This document shows positions 2,427 through 10,495 of a DNA stretch of 10,495 nucleotides, piece after piece. The translations under genes and the position numbers were made by a program. The notes beneath the pieces are model-generated. The model was not told the DNA's origin, ran no database searches, and saw only the letters and a program-made list of their open reading frames with translations. The stretch covers positions 1 to 10,495 of the forward strand of contig CAZEBC010000144.1 in assembly GCA_964510165.1 (NCBI GenBank), in the 5' to 3' direction. Source of the stretch: an uncultured bacterium. GTDB taxonomy: Bacteria; Abyssobacteria; SURF-5. The stretch's first letter is position 1. Every line of letters starts with the position of its first letter.

Positions 2427-3035
2427 CTATGAGGCCACTCCTTCCAGCAAAAGCAACCGCAGATTTCTGAACAGCCACGACAGATCGATGTGTTCCTCGT
2501 CCAAGTGAGCCATCATCGTCGTGCCCTGCAAGGCGCCGATTATCAACAAAGCCAGGGATTGGGGATTCATTGATTCCTTAAAAAGCCCTTCCCGTTTCCC
2601 TTGCTCCAGAATTTCTGTAATGCTGGCCTGCCAATCTCGGTATATTTTTCGCAGACGGTCGGAGAAATGATGCTGGGCTTCCATCATTTCGGCGGTCAAG
2701 ACCGCAAGCAGGGCGCATCCGTGAAAGACATGTCCTTGGTGGGTATCTATCATGATCTCGAACATTCTTTCGATTTTCCTGATGGCGCCCTTTTCCTTGG
2801 CTACTTCCTCAAGAACGTTATGGACCCAGAATTCCCTCATGTAGTCAATGACGGCGTCGCCGAGTTCATCCTTGCTTCGGAAATGGAAATAGAACCCGCC
2901 TTTCGTGAGCCCAGCCGCCTGGAGCACCTCGGTGAGCGAGGTATTGTGAAACCCGTTCTTTCTGAAGAGTTCGGCAGCGACCCTCACGATTCGATTTCGG
3001 GTCAATTTTCCTTTTTCGGGGATTGCTACGGTCAT
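2427..3035 (-). CDS. TetR/AcrR-family transcriptional regulator, NemR/LmrA/YxaF-like
   Basis: N-terminal HTH (AAELFRKNGFHNTSLTEVLQAAGLTKGGFYFHFRSKDEL); C-terminal GCxxxxxxAE motif; SD GGAG upstream. Confidence 0.95.
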   Translation of the reverse strand: MTVAIPEKGKLTRNRIVRVAAELFRKNGFHNTSLTEVLQAAGLTKGGFYFHFRSKDELGDAVIDYMREFWVHNVLEEVAKEKGAIRKIERMFEIMIDTHQGHVFHGCALLAVLTAEMMEAQHHFSDRLRKIYRDWQASITEILEQGKREGLFKESMNPQSLALLIIGALQGTTMMAHLDEEHIDLSWLFRNLRLLLLEGVAS

Positions 3036-3261: not shown

Positions 3262-3270
3262 TGATATAAT
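3262..3270 (+). promoter_or_regulatory. Extended -10 promoter for the phosphatase/Mut7-C/amrBA operon
   Basis: TGATATAAT, a perfect TGnTATAAT; no recognisable -35 box. Confidence 0.65.
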
Positions 3271-3342
3271 ATGGTGCAATCGGCCGGGCAATGGGGGCGC
3301 CCCGATTGGTTTTTGGCGCCTGGGACACGAGAAGTAGAACTG

Positions 3343-3834
3343 ATGGAATACAAACGAGCGATCCTGAATTTCAGCTTTGTAGTCCCGAATGCGCTGGCGG
3401 GAATGGCGCGCCCTGGCGTAATAGACTTATTAGCCGAAGATCTGCAATTTCTGAAAGGGGAAGGAATCAGGGCGATCGTGTCATTATCCGAGACTCCGCT
3501 TGAGGGGGACGCCGTTCGCCGGAGCGGATTGGAGTATTTACACGTTCCGGTGGATGATTTCACTGCGCCTGATTTGGAGAGTGTGGAGCGATGCATCGAT
3601 TTTGTCGAGAGGATGCTGCTCATAGAGAACAAGCCGGTGGCAATTCACTGTGGGGCGGGTTGCGGTCGCACCGGCACCATGTTGGCCTGTTATTTCGTCA
3701 AACAGGGTAAGACGGCCGAAGAGGCCATAGATCATTTGAGGTCGCTGAGGCCTTGTTCCATAGAGACTGAAGGCCAGAAGGCTTTGGTATACCGATACGA
3801 GGAACATCTGAAGTATCGTTCGTCCACGGATTGA
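3343..3834 (+). CDS. Cys-dependent dual-specificity / protein-tyrosine phosphatase family protein (about 163 aa)
   Basis: P-loop HCGAGCGRTG (CX5R), general-acid loop VPVDDFTAP, N-terminal NFSFV..LAGMARPG, C-terminal RPCSIETEGQ. Start set at ATG 3343 because ATG 3271 directly abuts the -10 box and would lie upstream of the transcription start. Confidence 0.92.
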   Translation: MEYKRAILNFSFVVPNALAGMARPGVIDLLAEDLQFLKGEGIRAIVSLSETPLEGDAVRRSGLEYLHVPVDDFTAPDLESVERCIDFVERMLLIENKPVAIHCGAGCGRTGTMLACYFVKQGKTAEEAIDHLRSLRPCSIETEGQKALVYRYEEHLKYRSSTD

Positions 3835-4328
3835 GATTGAACCGCGATTTGTCCTTTGCAGAGACCAGGACCCCCAGATTTCTTGCCGACAATATGTTGG
3901 GCCGTCTTGCCAAGTGGCTCAGGATTCTCGGATACGACACGGAATATGCATTCGACGCCTCCGACTCCGATCTCATCGCGCAGGCCCAATCGGAGGGCAG
4001 GATTCTGCTGACTCGCGACACTTCGTTGATACGTCGGAAGGAGTGTCGCAACTATATTTTCATCAGGAGCGATCACTGGCGCGAGCAATTGCGGCAGGTT
4101 TATGAAGAGGCAGGGCTCAACTGTGACTCGCTTCTCACAAGATGCGTGGTCTGTAATGCCCGGCTCAAAGCCGTGGATAAGCAATCCGTCGAGTCGGTCG
4201 TTTTTCCGTATGTCTACAAGACTCAGGAGCGGTTTTTCAAATGCGATCATTGTTCCCGCATATTCTGGCCGGCCACGCACGTGAGCCGCATCATTGATGA
4301 GATCAACAACTTGAAGGAGGATTCATGA
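3831..4328 (+). CDS. Mut7-C RNase domain protein (PIN-like fold with C-terminal zinc ribbon)
   Basis: FLADNMLGRLAKWLRILGYDT, EGRILLTRD, TRCVVCN...FFKCDHCSRIFWPATH are characteristic Mut7-C motifs; TTG start overlaps the upstream stop (exact start uncertain). Confidence 0.92.
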   Translation: MRLNRDLSFAETRTPRFLADNMLGRLAKWLRILGYDTEYAFDASDSDLIAQAQSEGRILLTRDTSLIRRKECRNYIFIRSDHWREQLRQVYEEAGLNCDSLLTRCVVCNARLKAVDKQSVESVVFPYVYKTQERFFKCDHCSRIFWPATHVSRIIDEINNLKEDS

Positions 4329-5950
4329 AAGGGATGAGGTTATTCTCGGGCTTGCTAGCCTTGACGGTTGCGCTTCTTGTCGGGTGTGCCCAGCGCGAGA
4401 ACGGGAATGCGACGGCCGAGCCTCAGACGCCGCAGCCGCGAGCGGCTCAACCGCAAGCGACGCAACCCGGCGCAATCGAGACGGAAGCGCCTCCGGAGGT
4501 GATTCGACCCTCGGTCTCGGGGATGTTTTATTCCTCCGATGCAGACACCCTAAGGTCCAACATAAGGCGTTATCTTGAACAGGCAGAGAAACGAGAGATT
4601 GACGGCGAAATCGTGGCGGTTCTTGTTCCGCATGCCGGGTACCAGTATTCGGGCCCTGTGGCGGCCCATGCGTATAAGGCCATCGCGGACGATGTCCGAA
4701 GAAGGAAACCGGAAGAACGACCCGAAGCGGTGGTTGTGCTTGCGTTCAGCCACAGGAGCGACTATGCCGGAGTCTCAGTGTATTACAAGGGGGCGATGGA
4801 AACCCCGCTTGGACGCGCGCATGTGCATGAGCGGATAGCCCGGGAATTGATGGCCAGCGATTCGTGTTTCTCTTTTTCTGAACGTGTTTTTGCGGGCGAG
4901 CATTCGGCAGAAGTGCAGATACCATTTCTTCAGGTGGTTCTGCCCGACGTGCCGCTGGTTCCAGTGGTTTTCGGACGGCAAAACGTTGGCAACATCGAGG
5001 CGGTCTCCAAGGGTTTGACGAAAGTCGCCGAGAAGAATCGAATTGTCCTTGTGGCGACGACAGACCTGTCCCATTTTCATCCGTACGATGCCGCAAATTC
5101 CATGGATTCCGAGATAGTTCAATCAATCTTAAGAGGCAGTCCTCGGGAGATGGCTGCCTTTATTGACCAGAATTATGGACGGATGCATGGGCCGTGCGGG
5201 CCGGGTCCGGTGCTTGCGGTGCTCTCGTATGCCGAGAGTCTGGGGGCGGCGCCAGTGTTATTGAAATACGCGAACTCAGGCGATGTCACGGGAGACAAAG
5301 GGGCGGTTGTCGGATACGCGGCAATTGCGTTCGTGAGGAAGAAGGATAGCGGAGAGAAAGCGGCAAAATCCGCGGTTGAAGAGATCCAGACCGAATCCTT
5401 TTCTCTCAGCGAAGAGGACAAGAAGACACTGCTCAAGCTTGCGCGCATTTCGCTGGAGTCGTTTATAAGGGAGGGCCGTATGGTGGAGATCGCCCCGCCC
5501 TCAAGCAAGGCGCTGACAGAGAATGGGGCGGCCTTTGTCACATTGCACAAGGCCGGGAACTTGCGCGGCTGCATCGGGAGCATGGAGGCGAGAGCGCCGC
5601 TGTACCAGACCGTCATGCGAATGGCGGTTGCGGCTGGCACGGAGGACCCGCGGTTTCCGCCCGTTCGTCCCGAAGAATTGGACGACATTCACATTGAGGT
5701 GTCGGTGAACACGCCGTTGAGAGAAGTGTCGGGCGCGGACGAGGTCATTCTTGGAACGCACGGTGTCGTAGTCGAGAAGGGATTTCGCCGTGGCGTCTTC
5801 TTGCCGCAGGTAGCCACGGAGACGGGCTGGACGAAGGAGGAATTCCTGGGGAATCTCTGTGTTCACAAGGCGGGGCTGCCAGCCGACGCGTACAAGAAGG
5901 ATGCGAAGCTGTATGTGTTTTCATCGATCATCTTTGAAGAGGAGCGGTAG
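4325..5950 (+). CDS. amrB: AmmeMemoRadiSam system protein B (MEMO1-like) fused to protein A (AMMECR1-like), with N-terminal lipoprotein signal peptide
   Basis: MEMO motifs RPSVSGMFY, PHAGYQYSG, EHSAEVQIPFLQ, TDLSHF, CGPGP, NSGD..VVGY; AMMECR1 motifs AFVTL..LRGCIG, DPRFPP, GVFLPQV, KAGL from about 5404; lipobox LVGC (Cys21); SD AAGGAGG; ATGA overlap with the Mut7-C gene. Confidence 0.93.
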   Translation: MKGMRLFSGLLALTVALLVGCAQRENGNATAEPQTPQPRAAQPQATQPGAIETEAPPEVIRPSVSGMFYSSDADTLRSNIRRYLEQAEKREIDGEIVAVLVPHAGYQYSGPVAAHAYKAIADDVRRRKPEERPEAVVVLAFSHRSDYAGVSVYYKGAMETPLGRAHVHERIARELMASDSCFSFSERVFAGEHSAEVQIPFLQVVLPDVPLVPVVFGRQNVGNIEAVSKGLTKVAEKNRIVLVATTDLSHFHPYDAANSMDSEIVQSILRGSPREMAAFIDQNYGRMHGPCGPGPVLAVLSYAESLGAAPVLLKYANSGDVTGDKGAVVGYAAIAFVRKKDSGEKAAKSAVEEIQTESFSLSEEDKKTLLKLARISLESFIREGRMVEIAPPSSKALTENGAAFVTLHKAGNLRGCIGSMEARAPLYQTVMRMAVAAGTEDPRFPPVRPEELDDIHIEVSVNTPLREVSGADEVILGTHGVVVEKGFRRGVFLPQVATETGWTKEEFLGNLCVHKAGLPADAYKKDAKLYVFSSIIFEEER

Positions 5951-6008: not shown

Positions 6009-6036
6009 TTGACAAAAACAAAATCGGTGGTATCAT
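6009..6036 (+). promoter_or_regulatory. Sigma70-type promoter of the receiver-domain gene
   Basis: TTGACA (6009-6014), 16 nt, TATCAT (6031-6036), preceded by TGG; AT-rich tract upstream. Confidence 0.75.
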
Positions 6037-6133
6037 TTATTCGTAAATCGTACCTGAAACAGTCTCCACGCCGCAAGTCCCCATGGAAAAAGCGCGAAAG
6101 AATTCTCGCCGAACGGCTCAGGAGCCGCCCACC

Positions 6134-6508
6134 GTGAGAAGGACAATTCTGGTGATTGACAGCGATCCCATCGTAGGAGAGTTGTTGCGCGGCTATCTGG
6201 CGCAACAGAAGGGATTCCAGCTTTTCGAGAGTAAGGCTGGCGCCGAGGGGATTGAGGCGGCGGTCAGGCATTTGCCCGACGTCATTTTTCTTGGGTTCAG
6301 ACTCGATGATATGGGTGGTCTCGAAGCCCACGAAGCGCTTAGGCAGAATCCTGTCACGAAGGACATCCCGGTCATTTACGTATCTTCATTCTTCACGCTT
6401 CGAACCGTCGAAAAGGCAACGGTGAAAGGAGCGAAGGGCTTCATCAGCCGGCCCTTCACCATCTCCAAGATACACAATAAGCTGAACACGGTCCTCGGCC
6501 CCTCTTAA
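6134..6508 (+). CDS. Single-domain response regulator receiver (CheY-like), atypical / pseudo-receiver
   Basis: Receiver fold pattern ILVIDSD...PDVIFLG...MGG...TKDIPVIYVS...GAKGFISRPF. GTG 6134 has SD AGGAG 9 nt upstream; ATG 6083 (track) has no SD but remains an alternative. Confidence 0.88.
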   Translation: MRRTILVIDSDPIVGELLRGYLAQQKGFQLFESKAGAEGIEAAVRHLPDVIFLGFRLDDMGGLEAHEALRQNPVTKDIPVIYVSSFFTLRTVEKATVKGAKGFISRPFTISKIHNKLNTVLGPS

Positions 6509-7194
6509 GTTGTTGCTACATTTCCGCATTCCGAAGTTGAGCGATTCCGGAGCAAGGTTTCAATCGCATCGTGCCGGATGGGGATACCCTTCACGCATCT
6601 GCACTGATTACAATTCTCACACTTTTCGATCCCAAGGGAGACTGCCTGAGCGAGTCGATCCATCTCGTCGCGGGGGTCAAGATGAAGCTGGGCAAGCCTC
6701 ACAAAGACGTATGGCCCACCGAAGCTCTCGTCTTGCCATCTGAAATGCGGACAGCTCGATACGCAACCATAACACTCAAGGCAGCCGATCAGGTGTTTGT
6801 AAGTCTGCGAAATCGGCAGCGGACCAAGCGTCTGCTTAACGGTCGGCCATACAAAGAGCTTCAATTCGGAAATCCTGGAGTCCAGGACGGACCTGTCCAC
6901 GATGAGGTCCCGCAGGGGGGGCAGATTCTTGAGAGGCGAGATTCTCATTTGTTCATGAGCGCTGGTGGCGCATGCGAGGCGAGGGATTCCGTCGACGTTC
7001 AGCGCGCATTCTCCGCACTTAACGCATCGGCAGCCGAACCTGAAGGCAAGCGTCGAGTCATATTCTTCATAGATATACAGCAAGGCTTGGAGGACGGTTG
7101 TCCCCTTTCCCATCGGGACATCATAGCTTTGCGTCTCGAACGTGCCTGATTCTGGCACGTAGCGTTCAATATGCACGTTTCCGCTCGACATCAC
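6505..7194 (-). CDS. Succinate dehydrogenase/fumarate reductase-type iron-sulfur subunit (SdhB/FrdB/TfrB-like)
   Basis: [2Fe-2S] motif CRCVKCGEC...LAC, PLKNLPPLRDLIVD, CLECYGCVSSCP, CENCNQCRC; start (GTG 7194 or ATG 7191) overlaps the flavoprotein stop. Confidence 0.9.
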   Translation of the reverse strand: MMSSGNVHIERYVPESGTFETQSYDVPMGKGTTVLQALLYIYEEYDSTLAFRFGCRCVKCGECALNVDGIPRLACATSAHEQMRISPLKNLPPLRDLIVDRSVLDSRISELKLFVWPTVKQTLGPLPISQTYKHLIGCLECYGCVSSCPHFRWQDESFGGPYVFVRLAQLHLDPRDEMDRLAQAVSLGIEKCENCNQCRCVKGIPIRHDAIETLLRNRSTSECGNVATT

Positions 7195-9002
7195 GCGTCT
7201 TCTCCGAGGTTCAATCGGGCATCAAGGATTCTTGCCTGTGTCTTGCGAGGTAGGGCGCTCAAGATCACGAACTGGATGCGCTCTCTGAGCGGGTTTGGGC
7301 CGCCCCGCGCATCGAGTCGAACCTTCGAGAGGGCGACATCCTCGGTCCCGACTGAAATCCTGCCGTCCTTCATGGATACGAGGACATTCTTGAGCCACTT
7401 CTTGTTGTTTCGGTTCGGATAATCCAGTCTGACATGGCCTCCCCGAGATTCCTCACGTGCGAGGGCAGAACGAGCAAGCGCTTCGGCGGTGCACAGCATC
7501 TTCTCAAGCTCGATTGCGTCAAGCCATTCGGGATTGCACTCTCGTCGCGCGGCAATTCTCATGTCGTTTGAAAGGGCGCGTATCTCAAGTATCTCTGAGA
7601 TGGCGGATTCGAGCCCAGTTCTATCGCGGATGGGGCCGACCTTGTCCCACATTGTTCTTTGGAGCCTGCGGATGAGTTCGATTGGCCTGTAACGGCCGGA
7701 TTGGCCGAGGAATCTCTCGGCAATGGAGCAGAATTCTGGTTCGGCTTCTGGGAAGGACATATGCGGCGCGTTTTTCGCCGCCAGTTCACCGGCGAGACGC
7801 CCAAAAATGAAAAGTTCGGCCAGGGAGGTCGAGCCGATGCGGTTAGCGCCGTGCAGCCCGCCCTGCACCTCTCCGACGGCGAAGAGGTTCTTGAGGCCTT
7901 TAACACGGCAATCGGGATTAACTCTGACGCCGCCCATCTGATAGTGAGCCGTTGGAAATACATCCCACGGGACCTTTCCCTGAGCGGCTTCTTCGCCGTA
8001 GGCCCGGCGGATCGAATCCGTCATGGAGGGAAACGTACTCTTGAGGAAATCGAACATCTTGGCGCCGAGCACCCTGCGCAGATTGGGGGAGAGGTCAAGG
8101 AGCATGCCGCCATATTCAGTCGCCCGGCCTTGCTCTTTAGCGAGGGACATGGCGGCGGCGACTTCTGCCCTGGTTCTGGTTCGAACATTGGATAGTATGA
8201 GGCGCCGTTTCGTGTCGAGGAGTCTGCCGTAGGGACCCGCTATTGCAGGCTCACCGCAGACGATTCCGATCATGGAATCGGGATGCGTAAGGGCGAAGGG
8301 GATGAATTGCTGATGCTCCATGTCGAGCAGTTCAGCGCCGGCCATAAGCGCCAGGGCATAGCCGTCACCTGTTACGGTGCGCATGTTGCTGGTGTGGGGA
8401 TAGAACAGCCAACCCAAGCCGCCGGTCGCGAGAATCGTCTGTTTGGCGGAAACGGCCAGCATCTCGCCGGTGAGCCATTGCAGGCAAAGCGCGCCTGCCA
8501 CTTCATTTCCGCATTGTAGGAGCCGCAGAACGACTGTCTCGTCGAGCACGCGCACGCCGGTTCGCGCGGCGGCGCTTCGGAGTGCCGTGCCGATGGGAAC
8601 GCCTTCGGAATAACCCGGCAGAGTGCGAGGGATACTGTGACCGCCGAGCGGGATGGGCAAGGGGGCGAGCTCCCCCGATTTCTTGCGGGCGAAGGTAAGC
8701 CCGAACTTCTCCATCAAGTCGGTTGCGCGATGCGCGCGCTCACAGAATCGCTCCACCAGAGATTGGTCGTTTAGGAACTCTCCCCCCACGACCATGTCGC
8801 GCATCAAGTTTTCCGGGGAGTCCCTAGGGGAAATGTTGGGGTGCAGAACGAGACCGCCCGCTATTCGGGTGTTGCCACAACCGTACGGCGCTTTCGAGAC
8901 CAGGAGCACTTGTGCGCCCGCCTGTGCGGCGGTTGCGGCGGCAACGATTCCCGCGCCGCCCCCGCCGATGCAGAGGACGTCGCATTGAAGATTCTTGATC
9001 AT
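7191..9002 (-). CDS. SdhA/FrdA/NadB-family FAD-binding oxidoreductase subunit, probably non-covalent FAD, substrate uncertain
   Basis: IGGGGAG, LATGG, TSN..TGDG, DME.QQF.P, PTAHYQMGG, GE..GGLHGANRIG, REESRGGHVRLDYP motifs. Confidence 0.92.
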   Translation of the reverse strand: MIKNLQCDVLCIGGGGAGIVAAATAAQAGAQVLLVSKAPYGCGNTRIAGGLVLHPNISPRDSPENLMRDMVVGGEFLNDQSLVERFCERAHRATDLMEKFGLTFARKKSGELAPLPIPLGGHSIPRTLPGYSEGVPIGTALRSAAARTGVRVLDETVVLRLLQCGNEVAGALCLQWLTGEMLAVSAKQTILATGGLGWLFYPHTSNMRTVTGDGYALALMAGAELLDMEHQQFIPFALTHPDSMIGIVCGEPAIAGPYGRLLDTKRRLILSNVRTRTRAEVAAAMSLAKEQGRATEYGGMLLDLSPNLRRVLGAKMFDFLKSTFPSMTDSIRRAYGEEAAQGKVPWDVFPTAHYQMGGVRVNPDCRVKGLKNLFAVGEVQGGLHGANRIGSTSLAELFIFGRLAGELAAKNAPHMSFPEAEPEFCSIAERFLGQSGRYRPIELIRRLQRTMWDKVGPIRDRTGLESAISEILEIRALSNDMRIAARRECNPEWLDAIELEKMLCTAEALARSALAREESRGGHVRLDYPNRNNKKWLKNVLVSMKDGRISVGTEDVALSKVRLDARGGPNPLRERIQFVILSALPRKTQARILDARLNLGEDA

Positions 9003-9008
9003 CAGGAA

Positions 9009-9350
9009 CTATTCTATCTCGATTTCCTTGACAGCCAGTTCCAGGCCTTCGATGACGTCAATGTCTTTCGACTGGCATTGCGGACAGAGGAACTTGAGGT
9101 CCTGCACCATAAAGATGTCCTCGCAGGATTTGCACTTCGCCTTTATCGGGACTTTCTCGACATCGAGCTTTGCGCCTTCGGCGGGCGTGTCCTTTGTGAT
9201 GAACTCGAAGAAGAAGGAGAGTTGGTCGGGAACGATGCCGCGAAGTTCGCCCGCGCGGATGCGGACGATCCTTATCTTGCGCGCGCCGTTTTTCGCGGCT
9301 TCGGCGAGGGTTATCCTCAGGATGCTCTGGGCGATTGACATTTCGTGCAT
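9009..9350 (-). CDS. hypA: Hydrogenase maturation nickel metallochaperone HypA
   Basis: N-terminal MHE Ni-binding motif, GEL..IVPDQLSFFF, CKSC...CPQC zinc site, G.EL.VKEIEIE C-terminus, 113 aa. Confidence 0.96.
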   Translation of the reverse strand: MHEMSIAQSILRITLAEAAKNGARKIRIVRIRAGELRGIVPDQLSFFFEFITKDTPAEGAKLDVEKVPIKAKCKSCEDIFMVQDLKFLCPQCQSKDIDVIEGLELAVKEIEIE

Positions 9351-9361
9351 AGTGCGTCTTT

Positions 9362-10429
9362 CTACCGGTTTCGTTTTTCCTGCATTATGGAGGACATCAG
9401 GTCGCGGAAGTTGCTTTTTGGGGGTTCGATTTGTTCACGGCGGATCATAGAGAGTGACTCAGTGGGGCAGACCATGTTGCAGAGGCCGCAGCCCAAACAC
9501 TTTTCGGGGTCAACCTCGGCGACCTCATTGACCGTCAGCGCGCCGAAATGGCAGCGGGCCACACAGGCCTCACATGCGACGCAGGTTTCGGCGTCGATGC
9601 TGACGACGAAATGGGATGTTGCGACCGCGTGGGGTTTGTGGAGCCGGGTGATTCCGCCGAGGATCCCGCAACAGCACCCGCAGCAATTGCAGATGAAGTT
9701 TATATGTTTCTGGGTATTATCGGAGAGGTGCACGAGCCCTTCCTGCTCCGACTTGTCAAGCACCTTGTAGGCCTCGTCTTTGGTTATCCGGCGCCCAAAG
9801 CCGCGCTCGACGACAAACTTTGCGAACGGCCCAAACTGGAGGCACACATCTTTGGACCTGCCGCAGGATTTTCCCAACAGTTCCATCTCGTGGCGGCAAT
9901 AACATGTTGCCAGGGCAAGGTAGTCGGCCTCTTCGATGAATTTCGATACCATCTCGTAAGGAAACACCTGGACGCCGCTCGGGATTTCCTTTTCCATGAC
10001 AAGCACCCGGGCCATTTGAGTTTTTGATGAAAACATGTTCTCGCCCCAACCACTGGTGTACATTTCTTCGAACAGCGCAGCCAGTTCCCGCGTTCTCTCG
10101 GTGACCTCGCCCTTCATGAACTGTAGTTCGAAAATGCCCGGCAATAGCGGTAGAATGCTGTAATGGTCCACGCCGTCCCGAACCCGGTGATACACAAGCC
10201 CTTTGTCGGCCATCGACTCGAGAATGGGTTTCAGCTGCGAATCATCCATCCCGATTGTTTCGCAGATTGAGGGTAGGGGAGTAGGAAGCATCGGAAGCTC
10301 GGCGCCCACCTTGGCTTGCTCGGCGGTAAAGAGCGCCTTCAGCAATTCGATGAATTTCTCGCTCAGAGGCGCACCCGCCGGGAATTGGTTGAGCTTGTCG
10401 ATCAGACGAGCGTAAATGCTCCGCGTCAT
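9362..10429 (-). CDS. Cys-rich 4Fe-4S binding protein (about 355 aa): HTH-like N-terminus, CxCR...CNCCGCCC central domain, C-terminal 2x[4Fe-4S] ferredoxin
   Basis: CVACEACVARC and CLGCGLCNMVCP ferredoxin motifs; central ATCYCRH, GLVH, ICNCCGCCCGIL; SD AGGAGG 6 nt upstream of ATG 10429 favours it over 10456. Confidence 0.88.
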   Translation of the reverse strand: MTRSIYARLIDKLNQFPAGAPLSEKFIELLKALFTAEQAKVGAELPMLPTPLPSICETIGMDDSQLKPILESMADKGLVYHRVRDGVDHYSILPLLPGIFELQFMKGEVTERTRELAALFEEMYTSGWGENMFSSKTQMARVLVMEKEIPSGVQVFPYEMVSKFIEEADYLALATCYCRHEMELLGKSCGRSKDVCLQFGPFAKFVVERGFGRRITKDEAYKVLDKSEQEGLVHLSDNTQKHINFICNCCGCCCGILGGITRLHKPHAVATSHFVVSIDAETCVACEACVARCHFGALTVNEVAEVDPEKCLGCGLCNMVCPTESLSMIRREQIEPPKSNFRDLMSSIMQEKRNR

Positions 10430-10439
10430 TGTGATCCTC

Positions 10440-10495
10440 CTAGGATTGGTTTCCAAGATTAAATTTGGGCCAGCGGTTCCAGTCGCCGTTCATCT
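10440..10495 (-). CDS. Possible 3' end of an upstream gene of the same operon (truncated by the window edge)
   Basis: One frame reads ...MNGDWNRWPKFNLGNQS* with TAG overlapping the next gene's SD (TAGGAGG); another frame ends in TAA at 10459-10461. No promoter visible. Frame and identity unresolved. Confidence 0.3.
   Translation of the reverse strand, partial: MNGDWNRWPKFNLGNQS

Follow-up and report, generated by a model that had tools for sequence, protein, structure and literature searches.

The window is the whole of contig C144 (CAZEBC010000144.1, 10,495 nucleotides), which belongs to the 4.17 Mb genome (G000, 97% complete) of an uncultured bacterium of the Abyssobacteria. It contains three same-strand open reading frames (ORFs) which encode a Cys-based phosphatase, a Mut7-C protein and a fusion of the AmrB (Memo) and AmrA (AMMECR1) domains (AmrBA). 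The coordinates of these genes and of the other features are given in Table 1. Each junction is a 4-nt overlap. The first is TTGA at 3831-3834, where the TGA stop codon of the phosphatase (3832-3834) overlaps the TTG start of Mut7-C at 3831. The second is ATGA at 4325-4328, where the TGA stop codon of Mut7-C (4326-4328) overlaps the ATG of the fusion at 4325; GGAGG is located ahead of this start at 4316-4320. Family counts refer to the window genome and nine other genomes of the same family, one of which (G003) is 77% complete. The phosphatase/Mut7-C junction is an NTGA overlap in 6/9 family genomes and a gap of 26-37 nt in the other three, and the Mut7-C/AmrBA junction is an overlap or a gap of no more than 5 nt in 9/9. 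An extended -10 element precedes the phosphatase. Its TATAAT is invariant in all eight orthologous upstream regions, in which identity elsewhere is 39%. The -35/-10 consensus scanner did not list the element because no -35 is present. The orthologues support a phosphatase start at 3343 rather than at 3271. The region 3262-5950 would be a single transcription unit of three translationally coupled genes. An original prediction made from the DNA letters had described both the coupled genes and the extended -10 promoter, and both are borne out here.

Table 1. Features of the operon and its flanks, by position on the contig.
Feature	Position	Strand	Basis or remark
TetR-family regulator gene	2427-3035	-	Pfam TetR_N and TetR_C_13; divergent from the phosphatase gene
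Extended -10 element, TGaTATAAT	3262-3270	+	Read from the sequence
DUSP23/VHZ-like Cys-based phosphatase, 163 aa	3343-3834	+	Pfam, NCBIfam and structure-sequence matches
Mut7-C protein, 165 aa, TTG start	3831-4328	+	Pfam PF01927, 153.6 bits
AmrB-AmrA (Memo-AMMECR1) fusion	4325-5950	+	Pfam, NCBIfam
Predicted lipoprotein-type signal peptide MKGMRLFSGLLALTVALLVG with lipobox Cys21	4325-4387	+	N-terminal sequence; orthologues
AmrB/Memo domain	4508-5326	+	PF01875, 180.8 bits; TIGR04336, 244.1 bits (over cut-off)
AmrA/AMMECR1 domain	5432-5935	+	PF01871, 177.3 bits; TIGR04335, 175.1 bits (over cut-off)
Sigma-70-like promoter, TTGACA-16-TATCAT, TG	6009-6036	+	Scanner, 11/12 matches; serves the response-regulator gene
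Response-regulator gene	6083-6508		Downstream of the operon; Pfam Response_reg

The product of the third gene has a predicted export signal. The protein begins MKGMRLFSGLLALTVALLVGC, in which a positively charged n-region is followed by a hydrophobic stretch of 14 residues and then by an LVGC lipobox. The lipobox consensus is [LVI][ASTVI][GAS]C, and the layout MKGMR-LFSGLLALTVAL-LVGC is consistent with the n-region, h-region and lipobox of a lipoprotein. About 40 residues rich in Pro, Gln and Ala, up to about residue 60, link the lipobox to the Memo domain. A signal peptide is found in 9/9 family orthologues, six of which have a lipobox and three of which are of the signal-peptidase-I type. 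Among the 120 closest AmrB-AmrA proteins of a large protein collection, 95 carry a hydrophobic segment resembling a signal ahead of the Memo domain (lipobox-like in 20 of them). The remainder are seven short N-termini without such a stretch, 10 ambiguous N-termini, several of which look like mis-called starts, and eight fragments. The database copy of the window protein (P0001) is annotated from an internal Met (475 aa, MFYSSDAD start); therefore, that record lacks both the lipoprotein signal and the overlap of the start with the Mut7-C stop codon (window positions 4325-4522). The original prediction identified the fusion correctly, but overlooked the signal peptide at its N-terminus.

Both halves of the fusion retain the conserved positions of their families. 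The cut-offs are 99 bits for TIGR04335, 26 for TIGR04336 and 220 for TIGR04337, the AmrS model. In the Memo half, H103, H143, D247, H250 and C291 are invariant in an alignment of 30 AmrB-AmrA fusions. H103, H143, H250 and C291 may correspond to the His/His/His/Cys metal site of MEMO1. The half matches human MEMO1 (3bcz) with an E value of 9e-10. The AMMECR1 half matches PH0010 (1vaj) with an E value of 8.6e-34 and contains LRGCIG at 413-418 and DPRF at 441-444, with G415, C416, G418, D441, R443 and F444 invariant in the 30 fusions. The RGChG cysteine and the DxRa motifs are described as defining AMMECR1 by Balaji and Aravind 2007 (PMC2034487). In the same account AMMECR1 is predicted to take part in RNA base modification, on the basis of the RGChG cysteine and of its occurrence beside, and fused to, a radical SAM enzyme and a ring-opening dioxygenase.

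The genome also has two AmrS genes over the TIGR04337 cut-off, one on contig C122 (417.6 bits) and one on C142 (355 bits). There is no radical SAM domain in the 11 window ORFs covered by the Pfam domain scan and no TIGR04337 match on the window contig, which agrees with the original prediction for this unit; amrS is not missing from the genome, given the two copies elsewhere. The genome has two AMMECR1 genes (C144 and C227) and three Memo genes (C144, C227 and C233). The C122 AmrS starts MSGMFRRDFLVK / MSGMFRRDFLVKTGAAAAGVGGGLAAY, which is a twin-arginine-type N-terminus, and a DUF362 gene with an RRRFLE signal is located directly upstream of it (C122 10354-12666; L001/L162). In the consensus of the twin-arginine translocation (Tat) signal, an (S/T)RRxFLK-like motif precedes a stretch of mild hydrophobicity. 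The motifs FRRDFLVKTGAAAAGVGGGLAAY in AmrS and TRRRFLEYVASVPA in DUF362 fit this consensus and suggest that both proteins carry a Tat signal. A Pfam match on C122 to the Rieske TAT-signal model is weak (E 0.0038) and below cut-off. The DUF362-AmrS adjacency is kept in 8/9 other family genomes, and the contig is cut in G003. The RR motif is present in six of the seven readable orthologous AmrS N-termini as well as in that of the window genome, and it is RK in G009. In G008 the AmrS alignment begins only at query residue 51.

The second AmrS copy is of a different type. In the family, frames of the C142 type are 344-375 aa long and their alignments begin at query residues 43-64, which leaves no room for a signal. 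Runs of N at about 1230-1320 of C142 cut the N-terminus of this copy in the window genome. On contig C227, tyrS and a thioredoxin gene precede an amrA and an amrB, neither of which has a signal. Since the genes on C122 and C144 bear signals and those on C227 and C142 do not, the genome seems to have one cytoplasmic and one signal-bearing Amr set.

The alignment of 30 fusions was used to collect 80 AmrBA loci from many phyla (L050-L129). AmrS is located within 7 kb of AmrBA in 36 of these, and its sequence always resembles the C122 copy more than the C142 copy. Two Acidobacteriota loci (L067 and L097) have DUF362 next to AmrS and AmrBA; therefore, the C122 AmrS is the likely partner of the window fusion. 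By eye, the 36 AmrS N-termini comprise 12 that are TAT-like (RR/KR-x-F-L-K type), 10 that are Sec- or anchor-like and 14 with no signal or a cut end. Among 150 representatives (50% clusters) nearest to the C122 AmrS, an N-terminal extension is absent from 77, a strict rule classes 22 as TAT-like, and about 8 more look TAT-like by eye. The rest include 4-5 Sec-like N-termini, 17 long N-terminal fusions and six fragments. Other recurrent neighbours of AmrBA are of envelope type and include a membrane protein of about 700 aa with a Spermine_synth domain within 4.5 kb (19/80 loci) and a DsbD_2 membrane protein (10/80 loci).

The AmrS of the second system would carry a twin-arginine signal and is encoded beside the twin-arginine DUF362 on C122, and the product of the third gene would be an exported lipoprotein-type fusion that forms the envelope arm of this second, split AmmeMemoRadiSam system. 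We infer a partnership of the window AmrBA with the C122 AmrS and DUF362, in a subtype that would be extracytoplasmic. Literature searches found no description of an exported Amr system or of the breadth of signal-bearing AmrS and AmrBA, a result that is provisional. Some long AmrS relatives (P0131-P0277) are 590-1055 aa with a C-terminal AmrS and others are 900-1150 aa with an N-terminal AmrS, which suggests multi-domain fusions of the Amr system.

The second gene encodes a Mut7-C protein with no signal peptide at its N-terminus. It has the features expected of the family, including a model score over the PF01927 cut-off (23.3 bits), a first acidic active-site residue after strand 1 and a four-Cys Zn ribbon. 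In the set of 62 sequences used for conservation and for a tree, D20 and D36 are present in all 62, D63 in 55 and the Zn ribbon (C105/C108/C138/C141) in 56. The AlphaFold (AF2) model has a pLDDT of 83.9 and its top fold match is the C-terminal domain of C. elegans MUT-7 (8q66_A, E 3.5e-3, TMq 0.51). The match of the model to a PIN protein is weak (E 0.02). Mut7-C is listed as a domain of unknown function with 2-4 active-site residues by Matelska et al. 2017 (PMC5499597). A 2024 paper on MUT-7 assigns RNA binding rather than cleavage to the animal MUT7-C domain, which served there as a negative control in RNA-degradation assays, and calls the prokaryotic function unknown (PMC11347159). Six longer Mut7-C proteins were found, with fusions to NTPase_1, an RNase Z-like domain or SIR2; none of the six is fused to an Amr domain or to the phosphatase, which is weak evidence. 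An apparent Mut7-C-AmrS fusion of 442 aa in L153 is an artefact of a masked run of N. The Mut7-C gene of G008 (L049 7971-8467, G008:C25) is split over two frames, for which possible causes are a frameshift, pseudogene formation and an assembly error; the neighbouring phosphatase and AmrBA genes are intact.

L129 (the record is labelled Candidatus Omnitrophota) led to a second bacterial phylum in which the Mut7-C gene is linked to AMMECR1. The group comprises 65 genomes and is of phylum level in the grouping of the search tool. In 21 of 30 Mut7-C loci of this group, same-strand Amr genes follow, which are AmrS then Memo in 19 loci and a stand-alone AmrA in two. In 27 genomes no more than about 2.5 kb separates Mut7-C from an AMMECR1 domain, and in two more Mut7-C adjoins AmrS/Memo at a contig end, so the linkage is present in 29/44 genomes having Mut7-C over cut-off. 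The unlinked genomes have only short stand-alone AMMECR1 frames. The arrangements are Mut7C-AmrS-AmrBA and Mut7C-AmrA. In L129 (3640-9542) the order is rph, rdgB, Mut7-C, AmrS (11-nt overlap, Sec-like N-terminus), AmrBA, DsbD_2 and QueH; in L158 it is Mut7-C, AmrA and QueH, and in L138 Mut7-C overlaps AmrA. The linked AmrS has a short hydrophobic N-terminus in 18/19 cases, and the nineteenth is masked. The tRNA-queuosine enzyme QueH adjoins Amr genes in two arrangements (L129 and L158).

The same pair is found on the archaeal side. A sample of 121 relatives of the L121 genome (record titled Altiarchaeota archaeon) includes 35 with Mut7-C over cut-off, and AMMECR1 is directly adjacent to Mut7-C in 12 of the 30 loci examined, with eight co-directional downstream and three divergent. 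The flanks vary and include AspRS with fibrillarin, PolD, NFACT (once), glycosyltransferases, an AAA ATPase with an intein, PhoU and CBS. Since the flanks differ between loci, this is the pattern expected of a selected pair. The archaeal AMMECR1 partners align better to the signal-less AmrA of the window genome. A neighbourhood that combines NFACT, AMMECR1 and an active Mut7-C RNase domain carrying a Zn ribbon is described for all archaeal lineages by Burroughs and Aravind 2014, who interpret it as RNA processing and modification (PMC4075521). In the present data NFACT is adjacent in one of the 12 archaeal-side pair loci (L185), and the 11 window ORFs have no NFACT domain. An AAA ATPase gene with a LAGLIDADG (intein-type) insertion lies directly upstream of the pair in L201, L202 and L203.

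The presence of the Mut7-C/AMMECR1 adjacency in archaea and in the second phylum suggests that this pair is the functional core of the operon, and a functional tie of Mut7-C to AMMECR1 can be inferred. The signal-less Mut7-C is most likely a cytoplasmic RNA-binding or metal-dependent phosphodiesterase-type partner of AMMECR1. It would prepare, deliver or control something that the AMMECR1 chemistry needs.

The conservation of the whole trio is limited to the family. Mut7-C is present in 8/9 other family genomes (none in G003) and all eight loci keep the phosphatase-Mut7-C-AmrBA order. However, all 13 window genes are collinear in four family genomes, and the other four are collinear to the ends of their contig stretches, except that G005 does not have the two leftmost genes. 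Since the trio is kept within a 13-gene collinear block, its conservation in the family is weak evidence. The sister-family genome G010 has no Mut7-C; it has a signal-less AmrBA fusion in a tyrS-thioredoxin context. The original prediction proposed to look for the trio across genomes, and took a gene order restricted to a narrow group with amrS elsewhere as a sign of chance assembly. This is the situation of the trio, which is confined to one family, but not of the Mut7-C/AMMECR1 pair, which recurs far outside the genus.

The three genes may be a lineage-specific operon without a biochemical link, in which case the Mut7-C/AMMECR1 adjacency elsewhere would be a historical accident. The family-wide collinearity is consistent with this, as are the absence of the phosphatase from 134 other loci, the absence of Mut7-C from 79/80 AmrBA loci and the condition of G010, where the phosphatase and a cytoplasmic AmrBA are apart and Mut7-C is absent. 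However, Mut7-C is located directly upstream of AMMECR1 in archaea with unrelated flanks, the pair recurs through rearrangements in the second phylum, and the tight coupling is kept in 9/9 family genomes. It is unlikely that the genes have no link.

The first gene encodes a phosphatase with no signal peptide at its N-terminus. It matches the Pfam and NCBIfam models Tc-R-P (97 bits), PTP-SAK (84 bits) and DSPc (58 bits). The P-loop is HC103GAGCGR109T and the general acid is D72. C103, R109 and D72 are invariant in 8/8 orthologues, and the P-loop His is replaced by Phe in one (G005). The closest solved relative is 25xa_A, a 162-aa 'dual specificity protein phosphatase family protein' (E 1e-33). 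Human DUSP23 aligns over the full length (E 3.5e-23) and Tk-PTP and SsoPTP are also matched, while the polynucleotide 5'-phosphatase 1yn9 has an E value of only 2e-6. The RNA 5'-phosphatase branch (BVP/PIR1/DUSP11) is not known to have the general-acid Asp, and DUSP23-like enzymes are known as protein phosphatases. The original prediction allowed for an RNA phosphatase; the DUSP23-like class, the retained Asp and the distance from the RNA 5'-phosphatase branch argue against this option.

A phosphatase HMM built from eight orthologues was compared with six-frame ORFs of 134 loci outside the family (22 Mut7-C loci, 80 AmrBA loci and 32 further loci) and gave no matches at E<=10. The absence of the phosphatase from all 134 loci indicates that it is a family-specific addition. 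In G010 a 58%-identical phosphatase is located on a separate contig from the Amr genes, beside unrelated genes. A search for longer forms found one animal PTPDC1-like protein only, which is weak evidence. The DUSP23-like phosphatase would have joined the operon only in this family, where it would be co-expressed with AmrBA, and nothing ties it to the same substrate. Its likeliest role is regulatory or unrelated to the other two genes. Since it resembles a local addition, it is unsuitable for inferring the function of the Amr system.

The operon could also encode a cytoplasmic RNA module. RNA would be cut or bound by Mut7-C, its phosphate ends would be trimmed by the phosphatase, and a base would be modified by AmrB-AmrA, with AmrS acting in trans. 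The published prediction of RNA base modification by AMMECR1 (PMC2034487), the link of the archaeal neighbourhood to RNA processing (PMC4075521) and the contribution of the animal MUT7-C domain to RNA binding (PMC11347159) all point in this direction, as do QueH beside the Amr genes in L129 and L158 and the conserved D20, D36 and D63 of Mut7-C. However, both the lipoprotein signal of AmrBA and the Tat signals of AmrS and DUF362 are conserved within the family, and such signals are common in other groups too. The phosphatase keeps its general-acid Asp, is much closer to DUSP23 (E 3.5e-23) than to 1yn9 (E 2e-6) and does not recur. The RNA end-processing or repair module of the original prediction is disfavored by the export signals, the class of the phosphatase and its failure to recur, and a cytoplasmic RNA module is quite unlikely.

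The other option of the original prediction was a phosphotyrosine (pTyr) reader-eraser pair, with Memo as the domain that recognizes pTyr peptides and the phosphatase as the enzyme that erases the mark. A pTyr peptide is bound by human MEMO1 (Qiu et al. 2008, as cited in PMC7694686) and the phosphatase is of the protein pTyr/dual-specificity (DSP) class. However, the predicted compartments of the two proteins differ, the window encodes no kinase, none of the 134 loci outside the family shows the pairing, and the Memo domain retains His/Cys columns of the metal-site type, as is typical of an enzyme. These results make the pairing highly improbable.

The export signals on AmrBA, AmrS and DUF362, and their absence from the phosphatase and Mut7-C, indicate different compartments, which argues against a joint RNA end-processing machine and against a pTyr reader-eraser pair. 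A pathway split between the compartments would reconcile the signal-less first and second genes with the exported third gene in one operon. Mut7-C and the phosphatase would make a precursor derived from nucleotides or phosphoesters in the cytoplasm, which would be exported and tailored outside by AmrS, AmrB and AmrA. This fits the order of a nuclease-like protein, a phosphatase and a modifier, and envelope redox helpers (DsbD_2) are found near other Amr loci. However, the pathway is pure conjecture, the operon has no transporter, the phosphatase is absent from every other Mut7-C/Amr locus examined, and DUSP23-like enzymes are known to act on proteins. A split pathway of this kind is very unlikely.

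The favored reading is a translationally coupled operon in which the fusion is the envelope arm of a split Amr system with the C122 AmrS, Mut7-C and AMMECR1 form the core, and the phosphatase is an addition found only in the family. The probability of this reading is estimated at about 0.5. Several observations weigh against it. Mut7-C is absent from 79/80 AmrBA loci, with L129 as the sole exception, and 0/22 Mut7-C loci of other bacterial phyla have Amr genes within 1.5 kb; therefore, the pairing is not obligatory. The surroundings are syntenic in both bacterial lineages (the 13-gene block here, and upstream rph-rdgB in L129 as well as L153), and conservation inside either lineage therefore carries little weight. 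Outside the cytoplasm, a radical SAM enzyme would have no evident supply of SAM or reductant, and the Sec-like signals of AmrS in the second phylum (18/19) are hard to reconcile with loading of the Fe-S cluster. There is no obvious mechanism by which a cytoplasmic Mut7-C could serve an exported AMMECR1, and the export of AmrBA, AmrS and DUF362 is a prediction from sequence only. The tree of the 62 Mut7-C sequences comes from a quick maximum-likelihood search, the careful search being unfinished. Its topology speaks for the pair, as the Abyssobacteria family clade (support 97) clusters with sequences from other phyla that have no such linkage rather than with the second phylum, and the linkage is present in both deep branches of the second phylum's group. 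A comparison of AMMECR1 and Mut7-C coordinates in 401 diverse genomes found no AMMECR1 match on a Mut7-C contig outside the family among the AMMECR1 matches listed (150 of 337).

The operon also has flanking features. The TetR-family gene is divergent from the phosphatase gene in 5/8 family loci, and the contig stretch stops short in the other three. It may be a regulator of the operon. A GC hairpin, TGGGGGCGCCCCG, followed by a T-run is located at 3292-3314 between the -10 element and the phosphatase start and is a possible leader terminator. Terminator-like sites are not enriched in the region, with six observed and 3.5 +/- 2.1 in shuffles. The 3' limit of the operon is marked by the separate promoter of the response-regulator gene. 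The minus strand at 6505-10456 carries SdhB-like and SdhA/FrdA-like flavoprotein genes, HypA and a gene for a 364-aa protein with two 4Fe-4S motifs; this cluster is collinear across the family and is unrelated to the operon. The window has no Rfam match at gathering thresholds, and the PADLOC models for anti-phage and toxin-antitoxin systems gave no family for any of the three operon proteins at E<=0.01.

The point of interest in this window is the putatively exported, signal-bearing Amr subtype, including its radical SAM enzyme, as the trio centered on the phosphatase is mostly a lineage-specific operon. A tentative extension, judged somewhat less probable than even, is that an extracytoplasmic Amr subtype exists in which AmrS with a Tat or Sec signal, DUF362 with a Tat signal and a signal-bearing AmrB-AmrA would act on an envelope or extracellular substrate. 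Proteins of the DsbD_2 type would feed electrons to it, and a cytoplasmic Mut7-C, together with the phosphatase in this family, would prepare or control the reaction. If this is true, a radical SAM system operates in the periplasm, and RNA base modification is at most one part of the AMMECR1 and Memo chemistry and of its conserved link to Mut7-C. Conservation of MEMO1 and AMMECR1 extends from archaea to humans, and both have been linked to disease. The leading proposal in the literature is that AMMECR1 modifies RNA bases together with Mut7-C. The window operon keeps this pairing, yet conserved export signals are predicted on its AMMECR1/Memo protein and on the radical SAM partner, and forms with such signals are common across phyla. 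Either cytoplasmic RNA is not the substrate or the predicted export is an error that would itself be instructive, and each outcome would narrow the search for the reaction.

The Mut7-C/AMMECR1 pairing in archaea (2014) and the AmrA/AmrB/AmrS system are already known. The bacterial version of the pair with a signal-bearing AmrB-AmrA fusion, the added DUSP23-like phosphatase and the split of the system over two loci are new; the breadth of signal-bearing AmrS and AmrBA is provisionally so. The phosphatase shares with DUSP23 (VHZ), Tk-PTP and SsoPTP a length of about 160 aa, an HCxxGxxRT P-loop and an upstream general-acid Asp. Unlike these enzymes, it is bacterial and translationally coupled to Mut7-C. 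The RNA 5'-phosphatase branch (BVP/PIR1/DUSP11) is not its closest relative, and it differs from this branch in retaining the Asp. The Mut7-C protein belongs to the same Pfam family as the MUT7-C domains of C. elegans MUT-7 and human EXD3 (PMC11347159); its best fold match is to the MUT-7 domain, and the four-Cys Zn site is shared. However, the window protein stands alone in a minimal form that has neither an exonuclease domain nor the insertion of the animal proteins.

The archaeal NFACT/Mut7-C/AMMECR1 neighbourhood has in common with the window a Mut7-C with a Zn ribbon that is upstream of and co-directional with an AMMECR1 keeping the RGChG Cys. In the window, AMMECR1 is fused behind a Memo domain with a predicted lipoprotein signal and a phosphatase is added, whereas the archaeal AMMECR1 is stand-alone. 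The AmmeMemoRadiSam system (TIGR04335/TIGR04336/TIGR04337) is represented in this genome by AmrA, AmrB and AmrS that are all over cut-off. In contrast to the known system, AmrA and AmrB are fused here and predicted to be exported, AmrS is located on another contig with a putative TAT signal and is paired with DUF362, and the genome has an additional signal-less set.

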